Below, piece after piece: positions 31,611-58,044 of a stretch of 64,000 bases of DNA. The translations under genes and the position numbers were made by a program. The notes under the pieces are model-generated. The model searched no databases. It saw only the letters and a list, made by a program, of their open reading frames with translations, and had not been told where the DNA came from. The DNA is from Alphaproteobacteria bacterium (lineage in GTDB: Bacteria > Pseudomonadota > Alphaproteobacteria > Bin95), in assembly GCA_965205265.1 (NCBI GenBank), contig CBDBGH010000003.1, positions 1,312,001-1,376,000 on the forward strand, written 5' to 3'. Within the stretch, counting starts at the first letter, position 1; each line of letters starts with the position of its first letter.

Positions 31611-33335
31611 ATGGCCGACTATGCGGTCGTCTGGCCCCGGGGCGAGAAGGCGCAGGAGATGCAGGCGCTGGCGCCGCGCCTCGACAGCCTCGAGGGCAAG
31701 CGCGTCGCCTTCCTCTGGGACTATCTGTTCCGGGGCGACGAGATCTTCCCGATGCTGGCCGACGGGCTGGCGGAACGCTATCCGGGCGTCGATTTCATCG
31801 GCTACGACGTCTTCGGCTCCACGCATGGCGACGAGGAGCGCGAGATCGTCGCCTCCCTGCCGGACCGGCTGAAGGACCTCAGGGCCGACGCCGTCATCTC
31901 CGGGATGGGCTGCTGAGGCTCCTGCACTCCCGCCGTGTTGCGGGTGAGCGCAGTGGCAGAAGCGGCGGGCGTGCCGTCCTCATCGCTGGTCTGCGAAGGC
32001 TTTGTCGGGCAGGCGGGCACCACGGCTGTCGGGCTCGGCATGCCGAACCTGCCGCTGGCGCCGGTCGCCGGCCATGTCGATACGCAGACCGACAACGAGC
32101 TCCGCTCAAACGTGCTGGGCGAGACGCTGGACGCCGTGATCGCGAACCTGACGGAGCCGCCGGACGAGGCCGTCGAGACGGTCGAGCCCGAGCCGCGCGA
32201 CATCGTGTTCGAGGGCAGCTTCGAGGAGGTGAACCGCCTCTTCTACGAGAACCGCTGGTCCGACGGGCTGCCGGTGGTGCCGCCTTCGGTGGAGAAGATC
32301 GAGCGCTTCCTCGCCTTCTGCGACCGGCCCGCGGACGCCGTGCTCGGCAAGCTCCCGCCCGACAACCGGGCGGCGACGGTCTGGAATGTGGCCGCGAACG
32401 GCGTCATGGCCGGCTGCCGGCCGGAATACATGCCGGTGCTGGTGGCGCTCGCCGAGGCGATGGCGAACCCGGAATACGGCGTCGAGCATTCCGGCAACAC
32501 GCCGGGCGCGGAGACGCTGATTACCGTCAACGGCCCCATCGCGAAGGCGCTCGGCTTCAACTATGAGCAGGGTGCGCTCAGGGACGGCTTCCAGGCCAAC
32601 ACCTCGGTCGGGCGCTTCTGGCGGCTCTATCTGCGCAATGTCGCAGGCTTCATCCCGCACGAAACCGACAAGGGCACTTTCGGCAACACCTGGCGGGTGG
32701 CGCTGGCCGAGAACGAGGATGTGCTGAAGCGGATCGGCTGGCCCAACACGGCGACCGATATGGGCCTGCCGGAAGGCGCCAACGCCGTCACCGTCTCCCG
32801 CTATACCGGCGGCGACGTGGTGACCTCCGTTTTCGGGCGCCGGGCGGAGGAGATGCTGCCCTATCTGGCGGACGCGCTGGTCAAGCAGTCCGGCTGGGAG
32901 CTTGTGTTCACCGTCGGCATGGCGACCGGCACCTACCGCCCGCTGCTGGTGCTCTCGCCGATCCTGGCTGAGACCATCGCCGGTTCGGGGCTCTCCAAGG
33001 ACGACATGCGGGACTGGCTCTACGAGCATGCGCGGATGCCGGCCCGGAAGTTCGAGCGATATATCTCGGGCTGGACCAACCTGGTGCCGGGCCACCGCTC
33101 GCTGACGGAACTCGTGGCGCTCGGCAAGGCGCCCGAGGTCTTCGCCGAGTCCGACGATCCGGACCGCATGGTGCCCATCGTCTGCGAGCCGGAGGATTTC
33201 GGCATTGCGGTCGCGGGCGACCCGCTGCGCACCAACGCCTATGTGTTCGCGCATAACGGCATACTCGGCTTCCCGGTGACCCGCGAGATCGAGCTGCCGG
33301 CGGACTGGCAGGCCCAGCTGGCGGCAGCTGGTTAA
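31611..33335 (+). CDS. UGSC-family selenoprotein (574 aa, Sec102, GC-U-GSC) fused to a W[ST]DGLP partner domain
   Basis: ORFs 31611-31916 and 31935-33335 are in the same frame and joined by TGA(31914)-GGC-TCC-TGC; SECIS-like hairpin follows; selAB in window. Confidence 0.88.
31922..31953 (+). promoter_or_regulatory. Bacterial SECIS-like hairpin
   Basis: CTGC-A-CTC-CCGC-[CGTGTT]-GCGG-GT-GAG-C-GCAG; loop starts 17 nt after UGA, G at loop position 2. Confidence 0.7.
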
Positions 33336-33356
33336 CTGAGGAAAGAAGGCAGGCCG

Positions 33357-33641
33357 ATGCAGGTCTCTGTCACCGAGGCAAGGAAGCATCTGGCTGCACT
33401 TATGCGCCGTGCAGAGGCAGGCGAAGAGGTTGTGCTGACCCGCAATGGCCGGGCGACCGTCAGGCTGGTGCCCGTGCCGCAGCAGCCCAAAGCCGAGATG
33501 CGTCGCGCTGCGATTGCCGATGCACAGGCCGCCGTTCGCAAGCGACTTGCCGAACTCGGTGAGGCAGGTGACCGGACGGCTGGCCCGAGCGCGGCCCGCA
33601 GCCAGGACTTCCTTTATGACGACGATGGTTTGCCGGCTTGA
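33357..33641 (+). CDS. Phd/YefM-family antitoxin (no intact toxin)
   Basis: MQVSVTEARKHLAALMRRAEAGEEVVLTRNGRATVRLVP Phd fold; YDDDGLP tail. Confidence 0.88.
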   Translation: MQVSVTEARKHLAALMRRAEAGEEVVLTRNGRATVRLVPVPQQPKAEMRRAAIADAQAAVRKRLAELGEAGDRTAGPSAARSQDFLYDDDGLPA

Positions 33642-33663
33642 AGCTGACGCTGTCGCCACTGGC

Positions 33664-33935
33664 GAGCGTGTGAAGAAATCGGATTTGTCGGGTTTTACGC
33701 CGCCCGTCCGGCGGGAAACAGCCCTTGGTGTGCCCCAAACCGTCACCCCGGACTTGATCCGGGGTCCATCCCTGACCGGTTGCGCCAGCCGCAGCCGTTC
33801 GAGAGGAAACCGAACCGTCTGCGCCCGCCGAGAGAACCGGAGATGGACCCCGGATCAAGTCCGGGGTGACGATGTTTATCTGTCCTCGTCCCCTTTCGAT
33901 ACGGCCGACTGCCGCTCCGATTTCTTCACACGCTC
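33664..33935. mobile_element. 272-bp MITE-like element enclosing an inverted REP pair
   Basis: Perfect 20-bp TIR GAGCGTGTGAAGAAATCGGA; internal perfect 30-bp IR CGTCACCCCGGACTTGATCCGGGGTCCATC (33741-33770 / 33842-33871). Confidence 0.8.
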
Positions 33936-33953
33936 AAGCGCGGAAACGACGAC

Positions 33954-35099
33954 ATGAGCAGAGCAACACTCTGGTTGCTGATTCCGGCGGGCCAGCGGGC
34001 GAACGGGGCGTGGATCGACGACACGCTCGTCCGCCGGGCGCGCGAGAAGGGCATGACCGCCCGGCTGACGGAGGCCGGGCGCTTTCCCCGGCAGCGTGTG
34101 GAGGTGCTGCGGGACGGGGACGCCGGCGCGCTCTACTACCGGCGGGGCTGGACCGACGGCCTGCCCATCCTGCCGCCGACGCTCGACCGGGTGGACGCCA
34201 TGCTGCGCGGGTCGGCGCGCGGGCGGAACGAGAGCCTGGGCGAACTCGACCCGCTGAAAGGCGTGGCGACGGTTGAGCGCGTGGCCGCCAACGCCGTCAT
34301 GGCGGGCTGCGCGCCGGAGCATTTCCCGGTCGTCCTTGCCGCCGTCGAGGCGCTGGCCGACCCCGCCTTCAACCTGCGCGGCGTGCAGACCACGGACGAG
34401 AATGTGGCGCCGCTCATCCTGCTGAGCGGGTCTGTGGTCGAGCGGCTGGAGGTGAATGCCGGCTTCGGCATGCTGGGGCCGGGCTGGCAGGCCAATGCCG
34501 CCATCGGCCGGGCGGTCCGGTTCGTCATGAACAATATCGGCGGCGGCTGGCCGGAGGCCGTTTCCTTCGCCGGGCTCGGCCAGCCGGGCCGCTACACCCT
34601 TGTGCTGGCGGAGAACGCCGCCGCCAACCCCTGGGAGCCGCTGCACGAGGAGCTGGGCGGCGAGAACGTGCTGGCGCTCATGCGGGCGGAGACCGCCATC
34701 AATGTGACCGGCGGGCTGGACGACCTTGCGAGCGTAATGGGTTCCGCCGCCTCGACCTTCAACATGGCCTGGGAAGGCAAGGCGGCGGTTGTGATAGCGC
34801 CCTTCGTGGCGCAGGAACTGGCGGGGCAGGGCTGGTCCAAGGCCGATGTGAAAGAAGCGCTCTGGCGGCGGGGGCGGATGCCGCGCGCCGAATTCGAGAA
34901 GCTCTGGCTGCGCACCCGCCTCATCGGCGGCGAACGCTGGCCGGAATGGACGGAGGGAGAAGCCGCCGTGCCGGCCGTCGCGCGGCCGGAGGACATCGTG
35001 CTGATCGTGGCCGGCGGCGACATCCCGATCCCGCAATGCGCCTGGTTCCCGTCCTGGGGCTTCCCGCCCTGCTGCATCGTGAAGGAGATCGCCGCGTGA
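33954..35099 (+). CDS. Stand-alone UGSC-partner (WTDGLP) domain protein
   Basis: GWTDGLPILPPT, ATVERVAANAVMAGC.PE.FPV, QANAAIGRA, AEN shared with the 31611 and 54954 proteins. Confidence 0.8.
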   Translation: MSRATLWLLIPAGQRANGAWIDDTLVRRAREKGMTARLTEAGRFPRQRVEVLRDGDAGALYYRRGWTDGLPILPPTLDRVDAMLRGSARGRNESLGELDPLKGVATVERVAANAVMAGCAPEHFPVVLAAVEALADPAFNLRGVQTTDENVAPLILLSGSVVERLEVNAGFGMLGPGWQANAAIGRAVRFVMNNIGGGWPEAVSFAGLGQPGRYTLVLAENAAANPWEPLHEELGGENVLALMRAETAINVTGGLDDLASVMGSAASTFNMAWEGKAAVVIAPFVAQELAGQGWSKADVKEALWRRGRMPRAEFEKLWLRTRLIGGERWPEWTEGEAAVPAVARPEDIVLIVAGGDIPIPQCAWFPSWGFPPCCIVKEIAA

Positions 35100-35917
35100 G
35101 GCCGCTCGACCTTGCAGTCGTCGGCGGCGGCGTGGCGGGGCTTGCGGCTGCCGACGAAGCGGTTTCTCTGGGGCTTGAGGTGGCGCTGTTCGAGTCGGGG
35201 CTCTATGGCGGCCTCGTCGCCAATGTGGGCGCGCTCGACGGTTGGCCCGCCATCGTTAGCGGCTCCGAGCTGGCCTATGGCTGGAAGGAGCGGCTGACGG
35301 AAACCGGCGTTCGCTTCCACGAGGAGCATGTCGAGGCCGTCCGCGTTCAGGGCCGCCGCCGGATCGTCGAGACGGACCGCAGCCGCTATCGGGCGAAAGC
35401 GGTCGTCGCGGCGACCGGCGCGAGGCTCCGCCGTCTGGACGTGCCGGGCGAGGAGGAACTGACCGGGCGCGGCGTGTCGCAATGCGCCTTCTGCGACGCC
35501 GGCTTCTTCAGGGATGCCGACGTGGCCGTGGTGGGCGGCGGCGATGCGGCCTTGCAGGAAGCGCTGCACCTCGCCGGCTATGTGCGCTCTGTGTCGATGA
35601 TCGTGCGCGGCGGGCGGCTGAGGGCCCGGCCGGGCTACGGGGCGCGGGCGGCGGCCGACCCGAAGTTCCGCTTCCACTGGAACAGCGAGGTCGCCTCCAT
35701 CGACGGGGAAAGCGGCGTCGAGGGCGTGACGCTCGCAGACGGGCGGCGGCTGGAGGTCTCGGGCGTGTTCGTCTTCATCGGCCTTGAGCCGGTAACGGCG
35801 CTGGCGGGGGAGGGCGCTTTCGCCGCCGGCGCCGTTCGCACGGGCGGTTCGCTCGCCGAGGCCGTGGCCGACGGGCAGCGCGCCGCTAGGGAGGCCGCCG
35901 CGGCGCTCAGGCGATGA
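35096..35917 (+). CDS. Thioredoxin reductase-like FAD/NAD(P) oxidoreductase
   Basis: GTGA overlap start; VVGGGVAG, ATGA, GRGVSQCAFCD, VVGGGDAALQEA, GVFVFIG. Confidence 0.85.
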   Translation: MRPLDLAVVGGGVAGLAAADEAVSLGLEVALFESGLYGGLVANVGALDGWPAIVSGSELAYGWKERLTETGVRFHEEHVEAVRVQGRRRIVETDRSRYRAKAVVAATGARLRRLDVPGEEELTGRGVSQCAFCDAGFFRDADVAVVGGGDAALQEALHLAGYVRSVSMIVRGGRLRARPGYGARAAADPKFRFHWNSEVASIDGESGVEGVTLADGRRLEVSGVFVFIGLEPVTALAGEGAFAAGAVRTGGSLAEAVADGQRAAREAAAALRR

Positions 35918-36842
35918 GCGGGCGCACTTCCTCGGCGAAGCGGTGCAGGCCCTCGATGCGCATGGGCTGGTCGCCGATGAAGTCGAGGTTGAAGTGGCGC
36001 ACGCCGGCCTTGTGGAAGGCGGCGATCTTCTCGGCGATGTCGGCGGGCGTGCCGAGCGCGGCATAGCGTTCCGCCGGCCTGCGGAAGTCCATCGCATAGC
36101 GCTTCGACAGCAGCGCCGCCGCCCGGTCGAGCGCCTTCTCATAGGTCTCGTCGATGCAGCAGAAGAGCAGATGGGAGGTGCCGAAGGCTTCGATCTCGCG
36201 GCCAGCTTCCTCGGCCGCCGCGGCGATGGTGTCGAGCGCGCCTCCGAACATCTCCGGCGTGATGACATAGGACATGTAGCCGTCCGCCATGCGGCCCGCG
36301 CGCCGCAGAGCCGCCGGCTGGCGCCCGCCGCACCAGATCGGCGGTCCGCCGGAGGTGAAGGACGCCGGCTGCATATGCACTTCCGAAAAGGGGAAGAACC
36401 GGCCTTCATGCGAGACCGGCTCGCCGGTCCAGAGCTTCCGCAGCACCTCGATGGACTCGGTCATGCGCGCGCCGCGCTCGCTATGCGGTATGCCGGCAAG
36501 CTCCCATTCGGGCGGGAACTCGCCGCCGACGCCGATGCCGAAGATGAAGCGGCCTTCCGCCAGATGGTCCAGCGAGGCGGCCTGTTTCGCCACCCCCGCC
36601 GGATGGCGCATGGGCAGCAGATAGACGGCGGAGCCGACGGTAAGCCTGGAAGAAAGGGCGGCTGCATAGGAAAGCTGCACGAACGGGTCCAGGATCGGCG
36701 AGGTGAAGGCCAGATGGTCGCCAACCCAGATCGAATCGAACTCCAGCCGGTCCAGAAGCCCGACCGTCTTGCAGGCAAGCTCCGGCGTCGGCAGGCGGGT
36801 CATCAGGCCGAAGCGCGTCCGGTCGTCCAGCGGCAGGCTCAT
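35907..36842 (-). CDS. LLM-class flavin-dependent oxidoreductase
   Basis: FDSIWVGDH, RHPAGVAKQAASLD, GRFIFGIGVG, PPIWCGG, RRAGRMADG. Confidence 0.88.
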   Translation of the reverse strand: MSLPLDDRTRFGLMTRLPTPELACKTVGLLDRLEFDSIWVGDHLAFTSPILDPFVQLSYAAALSSRLTVGSAVYLLPMRHPAGVAKQAASLDHLAEGRFIFGIGVGGEFPPEWELAGIPHSERGARMTESIEVLRKLWTGEPVSHEGRFFPFSEVHMQPASFTSGGPPIWCGGRQPAALRRAGRMADGYMSYVITPEMFGGALDTIAAAAEEAGREIEAFGTSHLLFCCIDETYEKALDRAAALLSKRYAMDFRRPAERYAALGTPADIAEKIAAFHKAGVRHFNLDFIGDQPMRIEGLHRFAEEVRPLIA

Positions 36843-36961
36843 CGTCGGCATCCTTCCTGTTGCAGGGCCTCGCCACAAATAGCCGTTCGGGAAGCGGTTC
36901 GGCAGGGAAAATTGCGCTGGCTGCCGGTCGAGCGCCCCTTCGCATTGAAGCATGCGTAATG

Positions 36962-36982
36962 ATGTGTATATTGCATACACAT
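36962..36982. promoter_or_regulatory. Putative TA operator palindrome
   Basis: ATGTGTAT-N5-ATACACAT just upstream of the antitoxin RBS. Confidence 0.6.
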
Positions 36983-37005
36983 ACGAGGAGACAGGAGCAG
37001 GCGCG

Positions 37006-37281
37006 GTGGCGAGGGTCCAGTTGCTCATCCCCGATGACGAGCGGGAGCGCTTCGCCGACCAGGCGCGCCGGGAGGGCATGACTTTCAGCGCATGGCTGAG
37101 GGCCGCCGCCCGCGCCCGGCTGGAGGACAGCCGAAAGACCCGCCGGTTCGCATCCGAGGAAGAGATGGAGGCGTTCTTCCGCGAGTGCGACCTCAACGAC
37201 GGTCCGGAAAGCGAGCCGGACTGGCATGAGCATCTGGCCGTCATAGCCGCTTCGAGAGCCGGCGGAGAGAGCGGAACCTGA
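37006..37281 (+). CDS. RHH/CopG-type antitoxin (VapB)
   Basis: ARVQLLIPDDERERFADQARREGMTFSAWLRAAA ribbon-helix-helix pattern; precedes PIN gene. Confidence 0.75.
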   Translation: MARVQLLIPDDERERFADQARREGMTFSAWLRAAARARLEDSRKTRRFASEEEMEAFFRECDLNDGPESEPDWHEHLAVIAASRAGGESGT

Positions 37282-37703
37282 TCTTCGTCGATACCAACGT
37301 CTTCATGTATGCGGTCGGGCGTCCCCACCCGCTGAAACCGGTTGCGCGAAGGTTCTTCATGGAAGCGCATCGCGACCGCGTGGCGTTGTGCGTCTCGGCG
37401 GAAGTCCTTCAGGAGCTTGCCCATGCCTATCTGCCCCGGGGACGGCGCGAGGCCTTCGACGCTGCCCTCGACCTTGCCTCGCGCGCGGATGTCGAGGTCT
37501 GGCCTCTGGAAGAAGCCGATATCGTGCTGGCCCGGCGCCTTCACGACGAGCATCCTGCCCTCCAGGCTAGGGACCTCTGCCATCTGGCCAGTTGCCGCAG
37601 GCGGGGCGTGCGGGACATTGCGACCTTCGACCGGGACCTTGCCGCCGCTGCCGGTTCCGCGCCTATTCCGGTGAGTGGCGGTCCGCGATTGGAACCTTCA
37701 TGA
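37278..37703 (+). CDS. vapC: VapC PIN toxin, probable CTG start
   Basis: (L)IFVDTNVFMYAVG, SAEVLQE, ARDLCHLA, ATFD; the catalytic VDTN lies upstream of the first ATG. Confidence 0.82.
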   Translation: MIFVDTNVFMYAVGRPHPLKPVARRFFMEAHRDRVALCVSAEVLQELAHAYLPRGRREAFDAALDLASRADVEVWPLEEADIVLARRLHDEHPALQARDLCHLASCRRRGVRDIATFDRDLAAAAGSAPIPVSGGPRLEPS

Positions 37704-38644
37704 TCTACCTGCAGTTGCTCGGCGGCTTCGTGCTTCTTCTGGGCGGGGCGGAATTCCTGGTACGGGGCGCGGTGCAGCTTGCGGCGCGGCTCGGCGTTTC
37801 GCCGCTGATCGTCGGGCTCACCGTGGTGGCCTATTGCACCACCATGCCGGAGCTGTTCGTCAGCCTCGAGGCGGCGTTCCGGGGCGCGCCCGGCATCGCC
37901 ATCGGCAATATCGTCGGCAGCAATATCTGCAACCTGCTCCTGATCCTGGGCGCGGCGGCCTGCGTGTATCCGCTGGCGGTCGAGCCGCGCGAGGTCCGTT
38001 TCGAGGGCTGCGCGGTCATGGGCGTGACGCTGCTGTTCCTCGCGCTGGCATTGACCGGCAGCCTGAGCCTGTTCGACGGCGTGCTGCTGCTGGTCTGCCT
38101 CGCCGCCTTCACCGTGATCTCCTACCGGCGTGCCCGGAGCGGCCACGGCGCCCCCGAGGTGGAGGAAACCGCGACGGACAAGCCGCTCTGGATGGTGCTC
38201 GGCACGCTCGCCATCGGCCTCGGCTGCGTCATCGCAGGTTCGAACCTGCTGGTCGGGGGCGCCATCGGCCTTGCCCGCGTGATCGGCGTTTCGGAAGCCG
38301 TGATCGGCGTAACCGTGGTCGCCGTCGGCACCTCGCTGCCGGAACTCGCCACGGCGGTGGTCTCGGCCTATCGCCGCCATCCCGAGGTCGCTGTCGGCAA
38401 TGTGCTGGGGGCGAATATCTTCAACCTGCTGGCCATCGGCGGCGTGGTGGCGACCGTCCATCCGCTCGACATTCCGGGCCGTCTGCTGGACCTCGCCGTC
38501 TGGGTCATGCTGGCCGCAACGGTTGCGCTCGTCTCCTGGCTGATGTTCCGGGGGCGGTTCGGGCGTCCGGCGGGCCTGCTGTTCCTGGCGGTCTATGCCG
38601 CCTATGTTGTCGTCGAGTATGGACCGTCGGCCGGCGCGGGATAG
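37700..38644 (+). CDS. Ca2+/Na+ antiporter (YrbG family)
   Basis: TTMPEL...[10 protein letters not shown] and GTSLPEL...[10 protein letters not shown] alpha repeats. Confidence 0.9.
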
Positions 38645-38648
38645 GCGC

Positions 38649-49285: not shown

Positions 49286-49439
49286 CGTCATACCCGCCTC
49301 TCATATCGTCATGCCCGGACTTGTTCCGGGCATCTCCCTCCACCGCTTCCGCCGGCCGACCGCATGGATACCCGGAACAAGTCCGGGTATGACGGAGAGG
49401 GGCGTTCGGACATGACGCAGGGGGCGTTCGGACATGACG
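49286..49439. repeat. CGTC-REP composite (inverted relative to the 47116 copy)
   Basis: IR arms 49307-49334 / 49367-49394 plus tandem GGGGCGTTCGGACATGACG. Confidence 0.85.
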
Positions 49440-49489
49440 GAGCCGGGGCAGAGCTTGCATCGATGCAATTCCCAAAGGGTCTCTAGGCC

Positions 49490-50407
49490 ATGAAAATGAA
49501 ACGAACGGCGCTGGCGGCCGCGCTCGCGGCCGCCCTGCTGTCGCCGGCGGCGGCGGACGCGGAGGTCCGGATCCTCGCCTGCGAGCCTGAATGGGCGGCG
49601 CTTGCGGAGGAAATCGGCGGCGGCGATGTCGTTGTCCACTCGGCGACCCACGGCCGGCAGGACGCGCACCACATACGCGCGCGGCCCAGCCTGATCGCCA
49701 AGGTGCGGCGCGCGAAAATACTGTTCTGCTCCGGCGCGGACCTGGAAGTCGGCTGGCTGCCCGTGCTTCTGGAACGGGGCGCGGGGCGAATCGTCCAGCC
49801 GGGCCAGCCTGGGCACATCATGGCGGCGGACCATGTCGAGGTGCTGGAGCGGCCGGCAGTCGTGGACCGCAGCCTGGGAGACATCCACCCGGGCGGGAAT
49901 CCGCATGTCCATCTCGACCCGCGCAACATCGCTATTCTTGCCGGAGTGCTGACGGAACGGCTGGAGCGGATCGACCCGGAGCGCGCGGCGGCCTACCGGC
50001 AGCGGCTGGCGTCCTTCCAGGCCCGCTGGGCCGACGCCGCGGCCGGCTGGCGCGAGCGGGCGGAGAAGCTGGGCGGCATGAAGGTGTTCGTCCATCACAA
50101 GGCATGGCCCTATCTGCTGCACTGGACGGGGCTGGAACAGGTTGCGGCCCTGGAGAGGGTTTCGGGCGTTCCGCCGACCGCATCGCATCTGGCCGAGGTC
50201 CTCGAACTGGCGCGGGGCAGCGGCGCGAAGGCCATTCTCCGCGCGCCCTTCGACCCTGAGGACGCCTCTGAGTGGCTGTCCGGGAAAACCGGGCTTCCGG
50301 CCGTCGAGCTTCCGTTCACGGTAGGCGGCCGCCCGGAGGCGACGGACCTGTTCTCCCTGTTCGACAGCACGCTGGCCCTGCTCGAGGAGGCCAGAGATCG
50401 GTCTTGA
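49490..50407 (+). CDS. Zn/Mn ABC substrate-binding protein (ZnuA/TroA family)
   Basis: QDAHH, GADLEVGWL, GDIHPGGNPHVHLDP, HKAWPYL. Confidence 0.88.
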   Translation: MKMKRTALAAALAAALLSPAAADAEVRILACEPEWAALAEEIGGGDVVVHSATHGRQDAHHIRARPSLIAKVRRAKILFCSGADLEVGWLPVLLERGAGRIVQPGQPGHIMAADHVEVLERPAVVDRSLGDIHPGGNPHVHLDPRNIAILAGVLTERLERIDPERAAAYRQRLASFQARWADAAAGWRERAEKLGGMKVFVHHKAWPYLLHWTGLEQVAALERVSGVPPTASHLAEVLELARGSGAKAILRAPFDPEDASEWLSGKTGLPAVELPFTVGGRPEATDLFSLFDSTLALLEEARDRS

Positions 50408-51164
50408 CCTGCTCGATATCCTGGCGCCGGGCCTTGTCGTCGGACTGCTGGTCGCGGCGGCCCATGCGCCGCTGGGTATCGAAGTCCTCAAACGCGGCAT
50501 CGTGTTCATCGACCTTGCCACCGCCCAGGTCGTCGGGCTCGCCGTCATCCTGCTCGACCTCTGGCTGCACGAACCGTCCTGGACCGTGAAGCAGGGGTCG
50601 GCCTTCGCGGCCGGCATCGCCATCGCGCTGTTCTTCCGCTGGGTCGAGCGCAAGTCGCCGGACGAGCAGGAAGCGGTGATCGGCAGCAGCTTCATCGTCG
50701 CCGCCTCGGCGGCGCTGCTGGCGCTTGCCAACGACCCGCATGGCGGCGAGGCGCTGCGCCATGTGCTTTCCGGCCAGATCCTGTTCGCGTCCTGGCACGA
50801 CATAGCGGCCTTCCTGCCGATCTACGGCCTCTTCGCCGTTCTCTGGCTCGCCGCGCCGCGTCTGCGCGCCGGCGCCGGCTTCTTCGTGTTGTTCGCCCTT
50901 GTCGTCACGGCGTCGATGCAGCTGGTCGGCGTTTATCTGGTGTTCGCAAGCCTCATCCTGCCGGCGCTCGCGGCCCGCGCTGGCAAGGGCTATATCCACT
51001 GGCGCGCCTTCGCCAGCGGCGCTCTGGCCGTCGTCGCGGGCATCGCCGTATCGGCGGCCTCCGACCTGCCCGCAGGCCCGCTCCTGGTCGTCTGCTTCGC
51101 CGTATCGGCAGCCGCAACGCGCCTGCTTTTCCGCAGCCGGCCGATATTGCGCGCTATGCGGTAG
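50397..51164 (+). CDS. Metal ABC permease (ABC-3/ZnuB family), probable ATC start
   Basis: In-frame TM segment (I)GLDLLDILAPGLVVGLLVAAAHAPLGIEVLKRG upstream of the GTG at 50502; GAGGAGG 6 nt before ATC 50397; GVYLVFASLILPA. Confidence 0.8.
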   Translation: MGLDLLDILAPGLVVGLLVAAAHAPLGIEVLKRGIVFIDLATAQVVGLAVILLDLWLHEPSWTVKQGSAFAAGIAIALFFRWVERKSPDEQEAVIGSSFIVAASAALLALANDPHGGEALRHVLSGQILFASWHDIAAFLPIYGLFAVLWLAAPRLRAGAGFFVLFALVVTASMQLVGVYLVFASLILPALAARAGKGYIHWRAFASGALAVVAGIAVSAASDLPAGPLLVVCFAVSAAATRLLFRSRPILRAMR

Positions 51165-52101
51165 TGATGGACTGCAACGCGCGCTGTCTGCGGGCCAGGT
51201 CGCGAACGGTTTCGGCGAAATACCGGAAAGCGGAAAAGTCCCAGGCCGAAACGCGAGAGACCAGGCCGGCGCGAAATCGGGTCCTCCCGAACTCGAGCGG
51301 CAACGGCTTGAGGCGAAGTTCGGGAAGCCTGTCGAGAAAGGTGGTCGGAAGGCGGGACAGGTAGGGCCCCGCGCCCATCAGGGTCAGACCCGCAGGGCCG
51401 GCGCGGACGACTATACGTACATGTTTGCCGGTTCTGGCGAAGATTTCGTCGAGAAGTTCGGCAAGCGGCGAGCGGCCTTCGTCGTCCCGCGTCCTGGCCG
51501 GAGCGTCGCAGTCGATCCACGGCCACTCCACCAAGGCGCTGCAGGTCACCTCTCCGGCGTGAAGGGGATGGTCCGAGCGGGCGACGATGCGCGATGTCAT
51601 GTCCAGAAAGCTGTCGCGCCGAAGGATTGCCGGAAGCTGGCGGTCGACATCGATGCGGCCGCAATGGAGGTCGGTTTCGCCGTTCACGAGCAACCGGATG
51701 CCCTCCAGGAATGTCATGGTGTGCAGCCTCAGCTCGACATCCGGAAAAGCATCGTGAAACCTGGCAACGGCCTCGGGCAATATGGCCTGCATCCAGATCG
51801 GGCCCGCCGTGACCCGCAGGCCGCTCGTACGGCCCGTCAGCGTCGATTTGATCGTTCCCTCGGCGGTCTCCATCTCGCGCAGGATGTAGCGGGCCTGCTC
51901 GGCGACCGTGGCGCCGAATTCGGTAAGGCGGACGCCTGTCGGGAGCCGTTCGAAGAGCTTCCCGCCGAATGAGGCCTCGAGCCGGGCGATGGCGCGCGAC
52001 AGGGCCGGCTGCGTCATCGCCATCCGGTCTGCCGCGCCAAGGACGGTGCCGGTCTCCGCGACGGTGAGGAATTTCCTGAGATCGCTGCGCTTTTCGAACA
52101 T
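51154..52101 (-). CDS. LysR-family transcriptional regulator
   Basis: AADRMAMTQPALSRAIARLE...LFERLPTGVRLT HTH. Confidence 0.9.
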   Translation of the reverse strand: MFEKRSDLRKFLTVAETGTVLGAADRMAMTQPALSRAIARLEASFGGKLFERLPTGVRLTEFGATVAEQARYILREMETAEGTIKSTLTGRTSGLRVTAGPIWMQAILPEAVARFHDAFPDVELRLHTMTFLEGIRLLVNGETDLHCGRIDVDRQLPAILRRDSFLDMTSRIVARSDHPLHAGEVTCSALVEWPWIDCDAPARTRDDEGRSPLAELLDEIFARTGKHVRIVVRAGPAGLTLMGAGPYLSRLPTTFLDRLPELRLKPLPLEFGRTRFRAGLVSRVSAWDFSAFRYFAETVRDLARRQRALQSITTA

Positions 52102-52556
52102 GCGCACTTCACTCCTTGGGCAGTCTGCAGGAGGACTTGTGGCAGTTATATAGGCGATAACGCCTGAAAATTAAGGATTCAATTTTCCAATTCGATAAAA
52201 AATCACACAATTTATTATATCGAAGTTAGAGCCATAAGATTAACTTTCGGGCCCTATTAGTTTTTATCGTATCGGTAAAAACGCCAATATAGTATAATAT
52301 CCAGTCGAATTTCGATTTTATGAAATTTCTGCGTGGAGAATCGCCCATCGGCATTCCCGGACAAAATATCGCTTTGCCGGTTCGATGACCTCAATTGCGG
52401 AAATTACGAAATCTTCCGATGAGCATTGCGGTTCGACTGTTGAAAAAGATTCGAGACGGGCGGCCCTGAAAAGGCCGTATTCCGGCCATGCCGCTGCCGC
52501 ACAGGCCGTTTAGCCGGGGTCCATCGCAACCCGTATCCTGAGAGGAGGACCTCGGC

Positions 52557-53624
52557 ATGCATCGTTTCGGTATCCTGTCGGCGGCCATTCTGCTTGCCGC
52601 CGCTGCAATGGGCCCGGCGACGGCGCCCGCATCGGACCGCGACTACCGCCTCACCGGGCCCTATACCCACGACGCCCTCGCGATCTATCTGATCCATCGC
52701 GAGGCGGAAAACCCCGGCCCCGTGCCGCTCACGCTTGCCGAGGCGATGGAGCAGGGCGTCGTGAAGGTTATGGAAACCGGCGATGTCGAGGAGTTGGTCG
52801 TCCGCAATCGAGGTGGCCGCGAGGTCTTCATCCAGGCAGGCGATATCGTCAAGGGCGGCAAGCAGGATCGCGTGCTGACCATCAGCATGGTCGTGCCGCC
52901 GCATTCCGGAGACATTCCCGTCGGCGCCTTCTGCGTGGAGCAGGGCCGATGGGAAGGGCGGGGCTCCGAGAAAGAGCGCGAGTTCTCGGCGTCCACGGCG
53001 CGCCTGCCGTCGAAGTCCGGCAGGGTGGCGCTCTACCGCCGGGCGCAGGAAAGCCTGAGTGCGACCGGCGGCAGACGGGCATGGACAAGGGACCGTTCGT
53101 CGGGCCGGGGCGACCTCCAGGGGCGGATATGGGCGTCGGTCACGGCGACGCAGTCGGGCCTGGGCGGGGCCGTGAGGCAGTCCGTGGCCGACGAGCGGTC
53201 GCGCTCAAGCCTGCAACTGTCTCTGGAGAACGCCGCTCTGGCGTCGGCGCTGGAAGGTTATGAGGAAGCGCTGGGGCGGCTGGCGCAGGACCATCCGGAC
53301 GCGGTCGGCTATGTCTTCGCCATAGGCGGCAGGCTCGACGGCGGCGACGAGTTCGCGAGCACCGGCCTGTTCCGGAAGCTCTGGGCGCGGCAGTTGAAGG
53401 CGGCGGCGACGGAGGCCCTGGCGTCGGAGGACGAAACGGCGCGACCCGGCCCGACTCTGGCCGAGGTCGCAGTCTTCATCGACGCCGCGCGCACCGGCGA
53501 GGGCTCGAGCAGGGCCATGCCCGGACGGATAACCGTCGAAACCCGTGCGTCGGACGAAGCCTTCTACACCGAGATGCGCCGCTCGCAAGGCACCTGGGTC
53601 CACCGCAGCATCATCGCCCGGTAA
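52557..53624 (+). CDS. Exported ARPP-1/DUF6569-like domain protein
   Basis: Signal peptide; LTLAEA, VEELVVRN, GDIVKGGKQDR, FCVEQGRW, AVGYVFAIGG, FRKLW. Confidence 0.65.
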   Translation: MHRFGILSAAILLAAAAMGPATAPASDRDYRLTGPYTHDALAIYLIHREAENPGPVPLTLAEAMEQGVVKVMETGDVEELVVRNRGGREVFIQAGDIVKGGKQDRVLTISMVVPPHSGDIPVGAFCVEQGRWEGRGSEKEREFSASTARLPSKSGRVALYRRAQESLSATGGRRAWTRDRSSGRGDLQGRIWASVTATQSGLGGAVRQSVADERSRSSLQLSLENAALASALEGYEEALGRLAQDHPDAVGYVFAIGGRLDGGDEFASTGLFRKLWARQLKAAATEALASEDETARPGPTLAEVAVFIDAARTGEGSSRAMPGRITVETRASDEAFYTEMRRSQGTWVHRSIIAR

Positions 53625-53674
53625 CGCAGGCCGGGCTGCCGACTACGGCGCATAACAGGCGGAATCGCCTGGGG

Positions 53675-54076
53675 TCACCGGATGGACAACCGTTGTTCGA
53701 CCCATCGAACGACCGTTTCGGCGATTTCTGTAGCTTGCGAGTATTCTTCGGTGGTTACCGGGCGCACGACACCGGGGTAACGTGTGGCGGAGGCGTAGAG
53801 AGTCAGTTCGGCAGCAGCGCGTATCTCTTCCGGTACCTCTTCTCCTTCCTCTTCCAAAAGGAACAGCAGACGCCCCAGATCGTGCACGTAGGGGAAGTCG
53901 ATGCGTCGTTCGATCAACAATGCCTTGACCGCCTTCTCCGCGGCCTGTTGAGCGAGAAAGCACAGGTCCTCCAGATAGGCTTCGGGAACCCGATTGCGGG
54001 CCAAGACCAGACTGCTTCTCGCCCGGTTCAGCCATTCGCGGGGATCGTCCGGAGAGAAACGCTCAGGAGGCGTCAT
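53675..54076 (-). CDS. HEPN-domain protein (toxin)
   Basis: WLNRA, CFLAQQAAEKAVKA, VHDLGRL, RYP. Confidence 0.88.
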   Translation of the reverse strand: MTPPERFSPDDPREWLNRARSSLVLARNRVPEAYLEDLCFLAQQAAEKAVKALLIERRIDFPYVHDLGRLLFLLEEEGEEVPEEIRAAAELTLYASATRYPGVVRPVTTEEYSQATEIAETVVRWVEQRLSIR

Positions 54077-54392
54077 AGAGCACCTGCCCTTCCAGAAGGG
54101 CGGATTTGAAGACCAGGGCATGACTGTCCCTGAACCGTTCCAGGTCCTTCGGCGCTGCAACGACCGCGTCCACTGCGGCGCCCGCTCCGTACAAACTCCG
54201 GTATATGCGCCCCAGCAGGCCGAGAGTATCGGGATCGTCCTTGACGACCAGAATGTCCAGATCGCTGTCGGCGCCCATATCTCCTCTGGCCGCCGATCCG
54301 AAAAGAATTATCTTTTCAGGGGCGGCGGCTTCGACGATGCGTCTGACAATATCGTCGATAGTTTCCCGACTGGTTGTCTGCTGCGCATTCAT
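54063..54392 (-). CDS. Minimal nucleotidyltransferase (MNT antitoxin)
   Basis: IILFGSAARGD...DSDLDILVV. Confidence 0.9.
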   Translation of the reverse strand: MNAQQTTSRETIDDIVRRIVEAAAPEKIILFGSAARGDMGADSDLDILVVKDDPDTLGLLGRIYRSLYGAGAAVDAVVAAPKDLERFRDSHALVFKSALLEGQVLYDAS

Positions 54393-54432
54393 GGCAATCC
54401 AAGGGTCCCGGTTCGTGTCCGACGCCGCTTGG

Positions 54433-54957
54433 CTATCCGCTGCGGATGGCGGCGAGGATGGGCTGGATGGCGCGCTCGGCGATGTCCGTCAGCTCTTCCG
54501 GCGTGCGGTTCTGGATCGGGTGGTCCACGAACACCACGGCCGGGCGCACGCCCATGGCGTCCGCCTGCACGGCGGCGGCGTCGCGGAACTCCTCGGTCGC
54601 AATGGCGCAGCCGGGCATTCCCAGGCGGTCCAGCTCGATGATGTCATGCAAACTGCACGACGTGCACGAGCCTCAGTCCGCAAGCCCTTCGACAACGATG
54701 TCGCAGCGCTCCACGAGGTCCTGGATGACGCCGCGCGGGGCGGGCTTGGTGTGCGTCGGCTTGGCGAAGCGCATCACCTTCAGGCCCTGGGCGGCCAGCC
54801 GCTCCTCCACCGCGTCGAGGAACTCCACCGAACGCTCCTTGCCGATGGAGAGCAGGCCGATGGTGAGGCCGTCGAGGCTTGCCGGCGGCACGACGGGCTG
54901 CCGGTAGGCCGGCTCCGTCTCCGCCGTCGGGTCCCGCATCGTATAGGGTTCCGTCAT
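54433..54957 (-). CDS. Small UGSC-family selenoprotein (174 aa, AD-U-GSCTSC)
   Basis: ORFs ending at 54673 and starting at 54651 are in the same frame, joined by TGA-GGC-TCG-TGC-ACG-TCG-TGC; ATG 54957 after AAGGAG; SECIS-like hairpin. Confidence 0.9.
54633..54671 (-). promoter_or_regulatory. Bacterial SECIS-like hairpin
   Basis: GCTCG-TGCAC-GTCGTGCA-[GTT]-TGCATGAC-ATCAT-CGAGC; loop 19 nt after UGA, begins with G. Confidence 0.75.
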
Positions 54958-56402
54958 GGTCCGATCTCCTTCGTTACAGGATCGACTTCTCCGGTCATCC
55001 GCATTCCGGTCCACCCCCCTATGACCGCCGAGAACAGGCCCGCCGGTCCGCCCGCGCGCGCAATCAGGAAGGTGGGTTCGCGGAACTTGTCGATGACTTC
55101 GTGCTCCCGGCCGGGCTCCAGTCCTTCGGCGAGGCCGCCGGCGCCGCGCACGACGTCGCGTCCCGGTCGTTTCAGCGCGGTCCAGAGGGCTTCATGGATT
55201 TCATCGCGGCCCCAGCCCTCGGACTTGTAGATAAGGTAATGCTCCGGCGAGAGCACCAGCAGCGCCCCGCCGAACTCGCAGAGCTTCGGATGGTTCACAT
55301 GCCAGAGATAGTGGGCGAGCGAGGTCGTCAGCTCCTTCGCCGTGCGGCTCTTCTGGTCCACGAAGCCGCTCACCCCCTCGCCGTGGAAGAGGGTGACGGC
55401 GGACCTGCCCGGCGGGATGCCGCGCGCGACCGAGAGCGGCGTCCAGTCCGGGTCGGTTTCGTCCTCCGCGAAGCAGAAGGTGTATTTGCCGGGATTGCCG
55501 AGCGCCGCGCGGTCGATCTCGCCCGGCCGCCCGCCGCCGACATTGCGGACGATGAGCTGGAAGGCCCGGCCGATGGTGGCGTTGGCGCGGTTGCCCTGGC
55601 CGAGCGCGTTCAGGCCCCAGTTCATGCCGATGCGGCGCACGACGGGGCCGTTCACGACGATCACGGGCCCCGCGAAATGCGTCGTACAGAGCAGGCCGTG
55701 CATGGAGAACGCCGGGTCCAGTGCCGCTTCGACCGCTGCCAGCACGGTCGGGAAATATTCGGGCCGGCAGCCGGCCATGACGGCGTTGATGGCCGCCTTC
55801 TCCACCGTGCAGGGGATGAGGTTGGGCGGGATCGCCCCGATAACCTCGCCGGCCGCGCGCGTGGTGCCGGCCAGCATCCGCGCCACGCGCAGGTCGGTCG
55901 GCGGCACGATCGGCAGCCCGTCGGTCCAGCCCCGGTCGAAGGCCGCTTCCATCGGGTCGTCATGGTCCTCGACGGTGATCCGCCGCGCCTTGAGCGGGAT
56001 ATCGCCGAAGCGCACCGCCAGCCTCTCCGGCATCCCGAACTCGACCGACAGCGACCCGCATCCGGGCCGGTTCTCGGGCAGGTCCTCGCCGAGACCGTCG
56101 TTGCCGGTAAGGGCCCGCCATTCGGCCTTGTTCCATCCGATCGCGCGCGCGGCTTCCCTGCCGCCGCTGAAGCGGATCAAGGTCGGCACGGTCTCGATGT
56201 CAAGCCGGTATGAAAGCTCGAGATCGCCGTCGTGACGGGGCGCGGCGCCCTCGGGAAAGAAGGGATCGTCCTGCGTAACCGCAACGGCCCCTTTTGCCGC
56301 CAGTTCCGCGAGGACCGGCGCAACCAGGACGCAGGTCGGACAGTCCCGCTTGACCACCGCCAGCAGGCCGTCGGAAGGAAGGGCATCGCGCCAACCGGTC
56401 AC
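54954..56402 (-). CDS. Thioredoxin-like (CPTC) domain fused to a UGSC-partner WTDGLP domain
   Basis: KRDCPTC...IETVPTL thioredoxin fold; GCGS; GWTDGLPIVPPT, INAVMAGCRPEY, NRANATIGRA, GNPGKY, FAE. Confidence 0.82.
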   Translation of the reverse strand: MTGWRDALPSDGLLAVVKRDCPTCVLVAPVLAELAAKGAVAVTQDDPFFPEGAAPRHDGDLELSYRLDIETVPTLIRFSGGREAARAIGWNKAEWRALTGNDGLGEDLPENRPGCGSLSVEFGMPERLAVRFGDIPLKARRITVEDHDDPMEAAFDRGWTDGLPIVPPTDLRVARMLAGTTRAAGEVIGAIPPNLIPCTVEKAAINAVMAGCRPEYFPTVLAAVEAALDPAFSMHGLLCTTHFAGPVIVVNGPVVRRIGMNWGLNALGQGNRANATIGRAFQLIVRNVGGGRPGEIDRAALGNPGKYTFCFAEDETDPDWTPLSVARGIPPGRSAVTLFHGEGVSGFVDQKSRTAKELTTSLAHYLWHVNHPKLCEFGGALLVLSPEHYLIYKSEGWGRDEIHEALWTALKRPGRDVVRGAGGLAEGLEPGREHEVIDKFREPTFLIARAGGPAGLFSAVIGGWTGMRMTGEVDPVTKEIGP

Positions 56403-56415
56403 TTGTCAGCCTCCG

Positions 56416-58044
56416 TTACTCAGCCGCTGAAGCACTTTGCACGGAAACCGTATCCGCTTCCATGGCCTCCGCCATGCGGCGGAGTTCTGCTTTCTGGATC
56501 TTGGTGCCGTTGGCGCTGTGGGTGACGGGGAAGGCGTCTATGGCGGCGGCCCGGACGGGCACCTTGTAGTTGGCCATGGTCTCGCGGCACCAGGCGAGGA
56601 GCGCCGTTTCGTCAAAGCGGCCTTCCGCCGGGCGCACGAAGGCGAAGGCGCGAGGCCCTCGCGGCGTGGCCACGCCGACGACCTGGCACCCGGCGACCGT
56701 GGGATGCGTCTCGATATGCGCCTCGATCTCGCTCGGGCTGGTGAGGAACCCGGCGAGGCGGAGCGTGTCGCCCATGCGCGCCTCATAGACGAAGCTGCCG
56801 TCGGCGCGCATGCGGCCGGCGTCTCCGGTGCGCAGGAACCCGTCCTCCGTCATCGCCGCGGCGGTGGCTTCCGGGTTGCCCTCATAGCGGAGGAAGAGGC
56901 TCGGGCAACGCATTTCGACCTCGCCCGAGACGCCGGGCGGACAGAGCGCGCCGGTCTCGACATCGCGCACCCGCACCGCGGCTTCCGGAGCCACGGGATA
57001 GCCGCCGCCTGCCAGCCGGTCCTCCAGCGGCGCGTCGATCTTCTGCACGGCCATCAGCGCGCCGACCTCGCTCATGCCGTAAAGCCCGATCAGCGGCACG
57101 CCGCGCGCCAGCGTCCGCGCCGCGAAATCCTCCAGCGTCGGATTGAACAGCGCATAGCCGCAGAGGCGCAGGCTCGGGAAGGGTTCCGGCTCTTCGCGCA
57201 GGGCCAGCATGCCCGCATACATATCGTCCGTGCCCATGAAATGCGTGACCTTGTGCCGGCGCACCGCTTCGGCGGCCTCGCCCGGCGTGAACAGCGGGGC
57301 CAGGACGTTGGGCGCGCCGGCGGCAACCGTCGCCATCATGGTCGAGAAGCCGAACACGCCGCAAAGCGGCGTCGCCTGGTAGCTGACCGCGCCCGGCCGG
57401 TCCCAGCCGAAGGCGGCGACGCAGTCGCGGGCATGGCGCGTCACCGGCTCCTGTCCGTGCAGCACGAATTTGGGCTTCGAGGTGGTGCCGGAGGTTGTGA
57501 AGATGTTGCAGGGGTCGTCCGGCGCCGCGCGGTCCTCGGCCAGCGGCGGAGCCCCGAACAGCGCCCGCACCGCCGTGACCGGCTTGCCGGCCACTCGCTC
57601 TGGCACCGGCGCTTCGCCCTCGTCATGGACCAGCACCCGCTCGAGACCGGCGAGCGCGTCGTCCCCGATCTCGACCAGCATCCCGGCGAAGTCGATGTCC
57701 TTGAAACCCGGCCACATGACAAGCGCCCGCGCCCCGGACCGCGAAAGGATGTCCGCGACTTCGAGCGCCCGGAAGCGGGTGTTGACCGCGACCGTCACCG
57801 CGCCGAGGCGGCCGAGCGCAAAATAGAGCGCGAGCCAGGCCGGTACGTTCGGCAGCCAGAGCGCGACCTTGTCGCCCCGCCCGATACCGAGTTCCGCCAG
57901 CGCCGCCGCCGCCCGGCGCGAGCGGTCCAGCAGGTCGGCATAGCTCCAGGTCTCTTCGCCGCAGATGAGCGCCGGCGCGTCCCCCGTTTCTTCTTCCGCG
58001 ACGCGCTCCAGCAGGGCGGAGAGGGTCTCGCGCATGTCCCTCAC
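56416..58044 (-). CDS. Acyl-CoA synthetase (CaiC/fatty-acyl-CoA type)
   Basis: TTSGTTSKPK, YGMSE, RTGDAG, YKVP; start may be 58035. Confidence 0.88.
   Translation of the reverse strand: MRDMRETLSALLERVAEEETGDAPALICGEETWSYADLLDRSRRAAAALAELGIGRGDKVALWLPNVPAWLALYFALGRLGAVTVAVNTRFRALEVADILSRSGARALVMWPGFKDIDFAGMLVEIGDDALAGLERVLVHDEGEAPVPERVAGKPVTAVRALFGAPPLAEDRAAPDDPCNIFTTSGTTSKPKFVLHGQEPVTRHARDCVAAFGWDRPGAVSYQATPLCGVFGFSTMMATVAAGAPNVLAPLFTPGEAAEAVRRHKVTHFMGTDDMYAGMLALREEPEPFPSLRLCGYALFNPTLEDFAARTLARGVPLIGLYGMSEVGALMAVQKIDAPLEDRLAGGGYPVAPEAAVRVRDVETGALCPPGVSGEVEMRCPSLFLRYEGNPEATAAAMTEDGFLRTGDAGRMRADGSFVYEARMGDTLRLAGFLTSPSEIEAHIETHPTVAGCQVVGVATPRGPRAFAFVRPAEGRFDETALLAWCRETMANYKVPVRAAAIDAFPVTHSANGTKIQKAELRRMAEAMEADTVSVQSASAAE

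Follow-up and report, generated by a model that had tools for sequence, protein, structure and literature searches.

Are the UGSC selenoproteins of bacteria one half of a larger enzyme, and if so, of what kind? This question is raised by a stretch of 64,000 nucleotides (nt) from an alphaproteobacterial genome (GenBank assembly GCA_965205265.1, contig CBDBGH010000003.1, positions 1,312,001 to 1,376,000 of the forward strand; the whole stretch is hereafter called the window), in which two gene modules combine a UGSC domain with domains that carry a WxDGLP motif (hereafter, the partner). We found that UGSC and the partner form one conserved unit, by obligate pairing or fusion, and that this unit is repeatedly joined to thiol-disulfide electron donors. 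With about even confidence, we propose that the two would be the halves of a single thiol/selenol-dependent, thioredoxin-fed selenoenzyme, most likely a reductase. Module 1 (31611-35917, + strand) and module 2 (54433-59060, - strand) consist of the following features, in which Sec denotes selenocysteine, SECIS a selenocysteine insertion sequence, Trx thioredoxin, TrxR thioredoxin reductase, MBL metallo-beta-lactamase, and aa amino acids.

31611-33335, + strand: UGSC::partner A fusion gene, 574 residues with the TGA read as U
31914-31916, + strand: in-frame UGA, Sec residue U102 of the fusion, in the motif GMGC-U-GSCT
31929-31944, + strand: SECIS-like hairpin, CCCGC / 6-nt loop / GCGGG, beginning 16 nt past the U of the UGA
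33954-35099, + strand: stand-alone partner domain B (WTDGLP), 381 aa
35096-35917, + strand: gene of a short TrxR-like flavoprotein (CAFC), 273 aa
58041-59060, - strand: MBL-fold hydrolase gene, start uncertain; Lactamase_B at 92 bits plus C-terminal domain PF21221
56416-58044, - strand: acyl-CoA synthetase (AMP-binding) gene; NF004814 at 609 bits (cut-off 677) and PF00501 at 227 bits
54954-56402, - strand: gene of a Trx-like domain (CPTC, residues ~1-110) fused to partner domain C (WTDGLP), 482 aa
54433-54957, - strand: small UGSC selenoprotein gene, 174 aa, Sec at residue 95
54673-54675, - strand: in-frame UGA, Sec of the small UGSC protein, in the motif GLAD-U-GSCTSC
54643-54661, - strand: SECIS-like hairpin, 8-bp stem and 3-nt loop, 14 nt past the UGA

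An earlier interpretation made from the letters of this DNA (the sequence-only reading) had proposed three architectures, namely a UGSC-WSDGLP fusion, a WTDGLP protein with a TrxR, and a Trx(CPTC)-WTDGLP protein with a UGSC protein, and all three were confirmed where it had placed them. In the fusion protein, the UGSC domain spans residues ~1-185 and partner domain A (WSDGLP) residues ~195-574. The fusion matches the Pfam UGSC family (PF24696) at 99.1 bits (cut-off 25) and the NCBIfam equivalog model NF041046 at only 40.7 bits (cut-off 125), and the small UGSC protein scores 133.7 and 125.9 bits, respectively, against the same two cut-offs. The three WxDGLP domains of the window, of ~350 residues each, are paralogues (38% identity at E 3e-55; 31% identity at E 6e-38). 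Partner C, which is 38% identical to partner B, keeps both cysteines of the family, and partner B has Cys119 (in MAGC) and a Val at the second conserved Cys. Gene junctions within the modules are tight: the TGA stop of partner B shares 4 nt with the GTG start of the TrxR-like gene (GTGA), the small UGSC gene starts with an ATG that runs into the stop of Trx::partner C, again with 4 nt in common (ATGA), the acyl-CoA synthetase gene ends 13 nt before the start of the Trx-partner gene, and the MBL-fold hydrolase gene overlaps the acyl-CoA synthetase gene by 4 nt.

The association of UGSC with the WxDGLP domain, also put forward in the sequence-only reading, was borne out at three scales. The source genome encodes seven UGSC genes and eight partner genes, and each UGSC gene adjoins or is fused to a partner. 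In an even sample of the class, comprising 121 genomes with one for each family, UGSC and the partner occur in the same 17 genomes, and neither of the two occurs in the other 104. Specifically, 38 of the 40 UGSC matches in this sample lie within 300 nt of a same-strand partner, with one more at 418 nt and one at a contig end; conversely, the 47 partner matches comprise 38 that directly adjoin UGSC, one at 418 nt, one distant partial copy, and seven second copies located one gene further off. Finally, we collected 80 partner loci from Alpha-, Beta- and Gammaproteobacteria, Methylomirabilota/Rokubacteria, Chloroflexota, Acidimicrobiales, Nitrospinota, Poribacteria and others, and found a UGSC gene within 1.5 kb on the same strand in 68 of them; of the 12 loci without one, six are truncated by a contig end. 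Two of the loci hold several copies: L038 (Chloroflexi) contains three complete UGSC-partner modules in tandem, and L022 (Thermodesulfobacteriota) contains four partner and three UGSC genes, with two of the partner copies lacking the near-invariant Asp68 and Arg186.

Fusion is frequent as well. Among the best 150 representatives of the partner family, 67 have at most 380 residues and were left unscanned, and 47 of the 83 longer ones, which were scanned with Pfam, carry UGSC in the same chain. Fourteen of these 47 chains have a complete N-terminal UGSC domain, 29 have a fragment that follows the Sec position, being Sec forms clipped by gene callers, and four have a C-terminal fragment that precedes it, reflecting the opposite gene order. 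Given fusion and adjacency, UGSC and the partner may also touch each other where they are made as separate proteins.

Both UGSC genes of the window are, on the evidence of their reading frames and hairpins, which go well beyond what chance would give, real selenoprotein genes with Sec decoding signals. Part of the decoding machinery is encoded in the window itself.

15739-18950, + strand: selA and selB (selenocysteine synthase and Sec-specific elongation factor)

These genes lie ~13 kb upstream of module 1, with an enolase-superfamily (MR/MLE) gene after them (18959-20083); a selA gene also occurs at locus L020, just downstream of the module orthologous to module 1. The source genome also encodes tRNA-Sec and selD. 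The latter (L006:1862-4078; C3 about 4509861-4512077) is a 738-residue fusion of a pyridine-nucleotide-disulfide oxidoreductase (NADH-dehydrogenase-like) domain with selenophosphate synthetase, an Ndh-SelD form that is described in the paper on the Global Ocean Sampling (GOS) data (PMC2398784). All seven UGSC genes of the source genome contain exactly one TGA, at the same motif position and followed by G-[SA]-C. The same holds for a single TGA in 72 of the 73 UGSC matches in the 80 partner loci (the remaining one has Cys) and in 39 of the 40 matches in the class sample. The motif is UGSC in 60 of the 73 matches, UGSS in six, UGAC in two and CGTS in one, and four fall outside the search pattern. 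In 12 full-length database relatives of the fusion protein, the Sec column is occupied by Cys (CGSC), and most other relatives have been cut off at the TGA by gene callers.

A hairpin ~14 nt past the UGA is common to five of the seven UGSC genes of the source genome. In an alignment of 61 small-type genes (three from the source genome and 58 from other loci), 85.5% of the cells of the 8-bp stem are paired, compared to 78.2 +/- 0.8% in column shuffles (0 of 500 shuffles reached as high a value) and 20-50% in slid controls. One pair of this stem is GC in 34 and CG in 21 sequences, which is a compensatory change. This covariation partly couples the wobble position of a Val codon with a codon for Trp/Cys, and so goes beyond what coding constraints by themselves would produce. 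In the fusion-type hairpin, all 13 genes have the same five stem pairs, synonymous sites included, and the sixth is AU in five and GC in four sequences. An Rfam scan of the whole window returned no match at the gathering score, which leaves no curated SECIS model to apply. When the post-UGA regions were folded one sequence at a time, the results were no better than shuffles (z -0.4 to -1.6), and only the comparative hairpin counts carry information.

The second recurrent association is with thiol-disulfide electron donors. A Trx-like CPTC domain is present on two of the eight partner paralogues of the source genome. In the Trx-partner protein of module 2, the first 110 aa weakly resemble dozens of solved thioredoxins over residues 6-95 (E 7e-4 to 0.2) and score 17.4 bits against TIGR01068 (cut-off 96.8); with its CPTC present, 'thioredoxin-like' would seem a fair name for the domain. 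Among the best 150 representatives, Pfam places AhpC/Redoxin on three, the catalytic chain of ferredoxin-thioredoxin reductase (FTR) on two and a C-terminal TrxR-like domain on one, and a Trx-like hidden Markov model (HMM) finds a Trx-like N-terminus (CPTC, CATC or CETC) on eight, two of which are also among the three AhpC/Redoxin ones. Another seven proteins of this set, identified with custom HMMs, are tandem partner-partner proteins. The TrxR-like protein of module 1 scores 196 bits against TIGR01292 (cut-off 343) and 104 bits against Pyr_redox_2, and it matches solved thioredoxin reductases at E 1e-42, with CAFC aligned on CATC and a length shorter by ~40 residues; it is a member of the Pyr_redox_2 superfamily. 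Module 1 has orthologues at 15 loci (L007-L021). Nine of these keep the gene order fusion - partner B - TrxR-like, and one more has a TrxR-like gene 1.6 kb off. In two of the orthologous loci, a gene resembling arylmalonate decarboxylase and Asp/Glu racemase lies directly past the TrxR-like gene (L010:5519-6337, L011:2026-2964).

The partner family is very large and unnamed. The partner has no Pfam, NCBIfam or PDB sequence match; it has >4094 homologues, and the best 120 listed are all without a functional name. Searching 1.84 billion 50%-identity representatives with a profile built from the eight paralogues gave 8224 clusters at E 0.001, of which 2573 remain at E 1e-30. In the ESM Atlas, the nearest clusters are those of the partner's own family, with automatic names such as 'Thioredoxin family protein' and no common Pfam family. 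Class II fumarase was considered as a relative and rejected, its PDB sequence matches being at chance level only (E 0.18-0.43). Conservation was tabulated over 108 partner domains (eight from the source genome and 100 from the loci) in the numbering of partner B: Glu220 is kept in all 108, Asp68 (of WxDGLP) and Arg186 in 106 each, Cys119 (in MAGC, between two helices) in 104, and Cys217 in 85.

The family is the 'Unknown_1' domain of Zhang and Gladyshev (PMC2398784), who showed a UGSC/'Unknown_1' fusion in 2008 in supplementary Figure S1. The 'Unknown_1' block NGVMAGCRPEYMP ... GVEHSGNTPGAETLI in their Figure S1A is, nearly letter for letter, a region of the window's fusion protein, and the conserved Cys that they highlighted is Cys119/Cys269 here (PMC2398784). 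Whereas the 2008 figure printed the fusion with UGSC, we found the family also as stand-alone, tandem, Trx-fused, peroxiredoxin-like (Prx-like)-fused, FTR-fused and TrxR-fused proteins.

Structure prediction gave confident models both for the fusion protein (AlphaFold2; predicted local distance difference test [pLDDT] 93.7 and predicted template modelling score [pTM] 0.93, from a 126-row alignment) and for stand-alone partner B (pLDDT 94.9, pTM 0.94, from 102 rows). The partner was folded alone because fold searches with the whole fusion were swamped by generic Rossmann-like matches to UGSC. Against 48,161 PDB representatives, the partner model reached a best Z of 3.4, with 67 entries at Z 2 or above and none at Z 5. 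Below E 0.001, Foldseek matched nothing but [4Fe-4S] class I fumarate hydratases (best E 4.6e-4), in very weak alignments (template modelling score [TM] 0.15-0.20, root-mean-square deviation [rmsd] 18 A), followed by cyclic amide hydrolases of the Toblerone fold (barbiturase, E 8e-3). An independent aligner gave Z 3.1 (174 aligned residues, rmsd 5.5) for the fumarate hydratase/L-serine dehydratase class and 2.2 for the Toblerone fold, and its list also included L-serine dehydratase and CyuA. As these families turn up with both programs, sub-domains of the partner may be very remotely linked to fumarate hydratases or cyclic amide hydrolases, short of any fold assignment.

For the UGSC domain (residues ~24-187 of the model), the predicted fold is a generic three-layer fold of the Rossmann/flavodoxin-like type, whose best structural match is a designed protein (Z 11.5, rmsd 3.2, 126 aligned residues) and whose further matches include many short-chain dehydrogenases/reductases (SDRs), PurE and B12-binding domains at Z 9-10. 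Foldseek with the whole fusion model returned nothing specific for this domain, and a search of the ESM Atlas with a Cys-form UGSC domain (P0258, residues 1-185) gave no usable match among named non-UGSC clusters. The model places Sec directly where a strand ends and a helix begins. The modelled fold differs from the thioredoxin-like fold that was guessed for UGSC in 2008 (PMC2398784).

The sequence-only reading had also likened UGSC to GrdB. The source genome encodes a PrdB-like selenoprotein (L087:745-1953, minus strand, 403 aa, Sec154 in VPV-U-PNCT), which allows a comparison from within; its Cys-form relatives are annotated as GrdB-family or PrdB, and it matches no PDB sequence at E 1. An hhalign comparison of 38 UGSC with 20 PrdB-like sequences gave a probability of 66% (E 5.5e-5) over 59 columns, with Sec aligned on Sec and an E-x-x-G-[IV] motif aligned 15-19 residues past it. 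We found no solved GrdB or PrdB structure for a comparison of folds, and the main text of the 2024 Prd paper contains neither 'PDB' nor 'crystal structure' as a term and cites ColabFold (PMC11229817). The likeness of UGSC to GrdB/PrdB is best described as suggestive: local, moderate and not decisive.

How might such a unit work? In the mechanism that we consider, the partner would be the catalytic half that handles the substrate, by means of its near-invariant Asp (of WxDGLP), Arg and Glu and its one or two conserved cysteines. UGSC, a small Rossmann-like domain, would set Sec, usually as U-x-x-C, at the start of a helix and would deliver a Sec-based redox or nucleophilic function to the substrate-binding partner. 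Electrons would pass from NAD(P)H or ferredoxin to a TrxR-like or FTR-like reductase, onward to the thioredoxin-like CxxC domain and the Sec/Cys of UGSC, and finally to the partner active site, at which a small organic substrate would be reduced or reductively cleaved. The working unit would consist of the UGSC::partner A fusion, partner B and the TrxR-like gene product in module 1, and of the MBL hydrolase, the acyl-CoA synthetase, Trx::partner C and UGSC in module 2. A reductive selenium/thioredoxin relay of this kind was the central proposal of the sequence-only reading; the real selenoprotein genes, the conserved unit and the thiol-disulfide donors speak for it, whereas reductive cleavage is a step that we infer. 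More tentatively, the unit may represent a new class of thioredoxin- or ferredoxin-driven selenoenzymes, with a fold that has no solved relative, which would cleave diverse carboxylate, amide or CoA-activated compounds reductively via a selenium-substrate intermediate, as in Grd/Prd; we regard this as possible and somewhat doubtful.

Hints about substrates come from neighbouring genes. The five other modules of the source genome adjoin genes for hydantoinase B/oxoprolinase, SDRs, a Rieske oxygenase, PEP (phosphoenolpyruvate) carboxykinase and an Amidohydro_3 enzyme, and the position of its seven modules beside different catabolic genes suggests different substrates. We also scanned the 80 loci for neighbours and obtained 195 same-strand open reading frames (ORFs) within 1.6 kb, using a crude ORF filter that may miss or mis-start genes. 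Counted by locus, TctC-type receptors were found in nine, luciferase-like monooxygenases in seven, type III CoA-transferases in six, NHL proteins in five, and Rieske oxygenases, asparaginases and glutathione S-transferases (GST) in three each. The commonest of these families are lineage-bound, with TctC in Burkholderiales-type records and the luciferase-like and NHL proteins in Dehalococcoidia. The pattern, much of which is lineage-bound synteny, fits 'many substrates'; in both the source genome and the 80 loci, paralogues do stand beside different catabolic genes, in support of the sequence-only reading, which had proposed paralogues for different substrates. The companion suggestion of a CoA-activated substrate fared less well: an acyl-CoA synthetase lies upstream in module 2, but a CoA-related enzyme of any kind is a neighbour in only 10 of the 80 loci. 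CBS and 2-oxoacid:ferredoxin oxidoreductase genes are neighbours in three of the 80 loci, all of them without UGSC; in these three, the partner gene is followed by two CBS-pair genes and the oxidoreductase, and the arrangement may be a selenium-free, ferredoxin-linked version of the system.

One ORF inside module 1 does not belong to the system.

33357-33641, + strand: Phd/YefM-type antitoxin-like ORF (Pfam PF02604, 49.3 bits)

It sits within an insert of ~640 nt (33336-33953) that separates the fusion gene from the partner B gene and breaks an otherwise tight junction, and no toxin partner was identified for it. In orthologous loci, the gap between the fusion gene and partner B is ~70-200 nt. 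Metatranscriptome libraries from three studies contain contigs, 90-99% alike, that extend over the UGA of the fusion gene (e.g. 31629-32044) and also span the junction of partner B with the TrxR-like gene, and contigs of relatives join position 33325 to 33969 with 29-32 letters in place of the 643 letters of the window. Because these contigs bridge a short gap, they indicate close relatives without the Phd/YefM-like insert; because RNA libraries can hold DNA, they show the presence of the genes and are no proof of a transcript. Two toxin-antitoxin-like pairs flank the modules, one composed of a small ORF and a PIN-domain gene (36952-37703) and the other of a nucleotidyltransferase and a HEPN gene directly downstream of the small UGSC gene (53675-54392). 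A DDE transposase gene (26239-27894) and a gene for an ARPP-1 domain protein (PF20208; 52557-53624) also lie near the modules.

Several observations weigh against a single thioredoxin-fed selenoenzyme. The partner cysteines are uneven: Cys217 is absent from the fusion type, is Val in partner B of the window and is missing from 23 of the 108 partners overall, and the Cys119 position is Ala or Gly in four of the 108. Thus, module 1 has the first cysteine only, in both of its partner copies, and a fixed Cys-Cys/Sec relay cannot be universal. On the UGSC side, six of the 69 genes with a readable motif are UGSS and lack the resolving Cys; both partner cysteines are kept in five of these six UGSS pairs, and we found no clear rule that connects the motif variant (UGSC, UGSS or UGAC) with the cysteine pattern of the partner. 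Six partner loci (L030, L034, L035, L061, L065 and L074), five of which are from Poribacteria, have no UGSC nearby. The 195 same-strand ORFs of the 80 loci show no common neighbour theme and no universal neighbour gene. Neither UGSC protein of the window matches Pfam GRDB (PF07355) at E 0.01, although this model does match the PrdB-like protein of the source genome (30.9 bits); the proposed GrdB resemblance is weakly supported, by a local match with Sec on Sec. When the eight partner paralogues were searched against Pfam at E 5, they showed no link to any family, GrdE/PrdA included, and the only matches were to the fused UGSC and Trx-like parts and to two chance-level entries. Lastly, same-strand adjacency of a TrxR-like gene occurs in none of the 65 loci that are not orthologous to module 1. 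Given the nine of 15 among the orthologues, the TrxR link is real but subfamily-specific.

In a first alternative, UGSC would be a dedicated redoxin, like thioredoxin or GrdA, that keeps the cysteines of the partner reduced while the partner catalyses a non-redox reaction (e.g. isomerisation, racemisation or hydration) with Cys as nucleophile or acid-base. The one or two conserved cysteines beside an invariant Asp, Arg and Glu suit such an enzyme. Partners that lack a UGSC of their own do exist, namely partner B, the second copies in seven clusters of the class sample and the six UGSC-less loci, and the weak structural echoes of the partner are to hydro-lyases and ring-opening amidohydrolases rather than to oxidoreductases. 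However, the near-complete retention of Sec (72 of 73 and 39 of 40 genes) would be unusual for a mere maintenance redoxin, and the FTR, TrxR and Prx-like donor modules fused to the partner suggest stoichiometric use of electrons. We consider this alternative unlikely, though the likeliest of the four.

A general antioxidant or repair role, in which the pair would be a peroxide, sulfoxide, persulfide or disulfide reductase and not a catabolic enzyme, seems improbable to us. It would explain the AhpC/Redoxin domains on three representatives and the GST neighbours in three loci, and many prokaryotic selenoproteins are thiol oxidoreductases (PMC2398784, PMC13188914). Yet seven diverged paralogues and the tandem triple of L038, beside different catabolic genes, are better explained by substrate diversification, and the partner is large (350 aa) and has a deep set of conserved motifs.

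The echo of fumarate hydratase raises a third alternative, that the Sec/Cys of UGSC and the partner cysteines bind a metal or an iron-sulfur cluster in a metal-dependent lyase or hydratase. U-x-x-C together with two partner cysteines would make four ligands, the [4Fe-4S] fumarate hydratases are the partner's only Foldseek matches below E 0.001, and L-serine dehydratase and CyuA are in the list of the independent aligner. These structural matches are very weak, though (TM 0.15-0.28, Z 2.6-3.1), the cysteine set is not conserved (23 of the 108 partners lack Cys217, and six UGSC genes lack the Cys at +3), and the fused donors are of the disulfide-exchange type, all of which makes a metal site quite improbable. 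The last alternative, that the TGA codons are true stops and the parts downstream are untranslated, split or decayed, takes its appeal from public gene calls, which mostly end at the TGA (466-468 aa forms; fragments), but has practically no chance of being right, as the frame is open and conserved on both sides of the TGA in 7/7, 72/73 and 39/40 genes, Cys homologues exist, hairpins past the UGA are conserved, and the full Sec machinery is present.

In the GOS data, UGSC had 255 Sec forms versus 21 Cys forms (Table 2, PMC2398784), and it ranks with the commonest selenoprotein families of ocean and freshwater metagenomes. A 2026 review groups UGSC with selenoproteins of largely uncharacterized function (PMC13188914), and in the literature that we searched, which did not cover subscription-only papers, we found no functional study of UGSC. 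The sequence-only reading had called the system a candidate uncharacterised one, which is right for its function, whereas the UGSC family and the Unknown_1 fusion had already appeared in 2008 (PMC2398784). The obligate pairing, the donor fusions and the apparent orphan fold are absent from the literature searched, with the same coverage.

With a constant partner, a very large unnamed partner family that has no structural relative, and thioredoxin-type donors, the orphan UGSC becomes a defined, testable enzyme system. The source genome is a convenient case, as it has seven modules, one of them a compact operon of three genes that includes a reductase of its own, with selA/selB nearby. If the chemistry resembles that of glycine and proline reductases, selenium-dependent reductive cleavage would extend from anaerobic fermenters to abundant aerobes, and the stubborn retention of Sec in UGSC genes would be explained. 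If the more tentative reading as a new class is true, aerobic aquatic and soil bacteria would turn over dissolved organic matter by a major selenium-dependent route that has so far escaped notice.

The closest functional parallel is Protein B of glycine/sarcosine/betaine reductase and of D-proline reductase, in which the selenoprotein GrdB/GrdF/GrdH/PrdB works with the pyruvoyl subunit GrdE/PrdA; in the Grd case, electrons are supplied by thioredoxin. As in Protein B, a U-x-x-C Sec subunit is accompanied by a separate, substrate-specific subunit of 35-45 kDa, paralogous sets would serve different substrates, and electrons would come from a thioredoxin system. In contrast to Grd/Prd, the UGSC partner has no sequence link to GrdE/PrdA, and UGSC hosts are mostly aerobes, whereas Grd/Prd hosts are Stickland fermenters. 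A second parallel is provided by the thioredoxin-fused or thioredoxin-dependent reductases, such as methionine sulfoxide reductase, arsenate reductase and peroxiredoxin/AhpF, in which, as would be the case here, a catalytic Cys/Sec is recharged by a CxxC domain of the same chain or operon; unlike in that group, the modelled partner fold matches none of their folds (best Z 3.4 among the 48,161 PDB representatives). With the UGSC family itself (PF24696/NF041046, the 'UGSC-containing protein' of Zhang and Gladyshev), the UGSC proteins described here share the same U-G-S-C motif and do not differ in membership.

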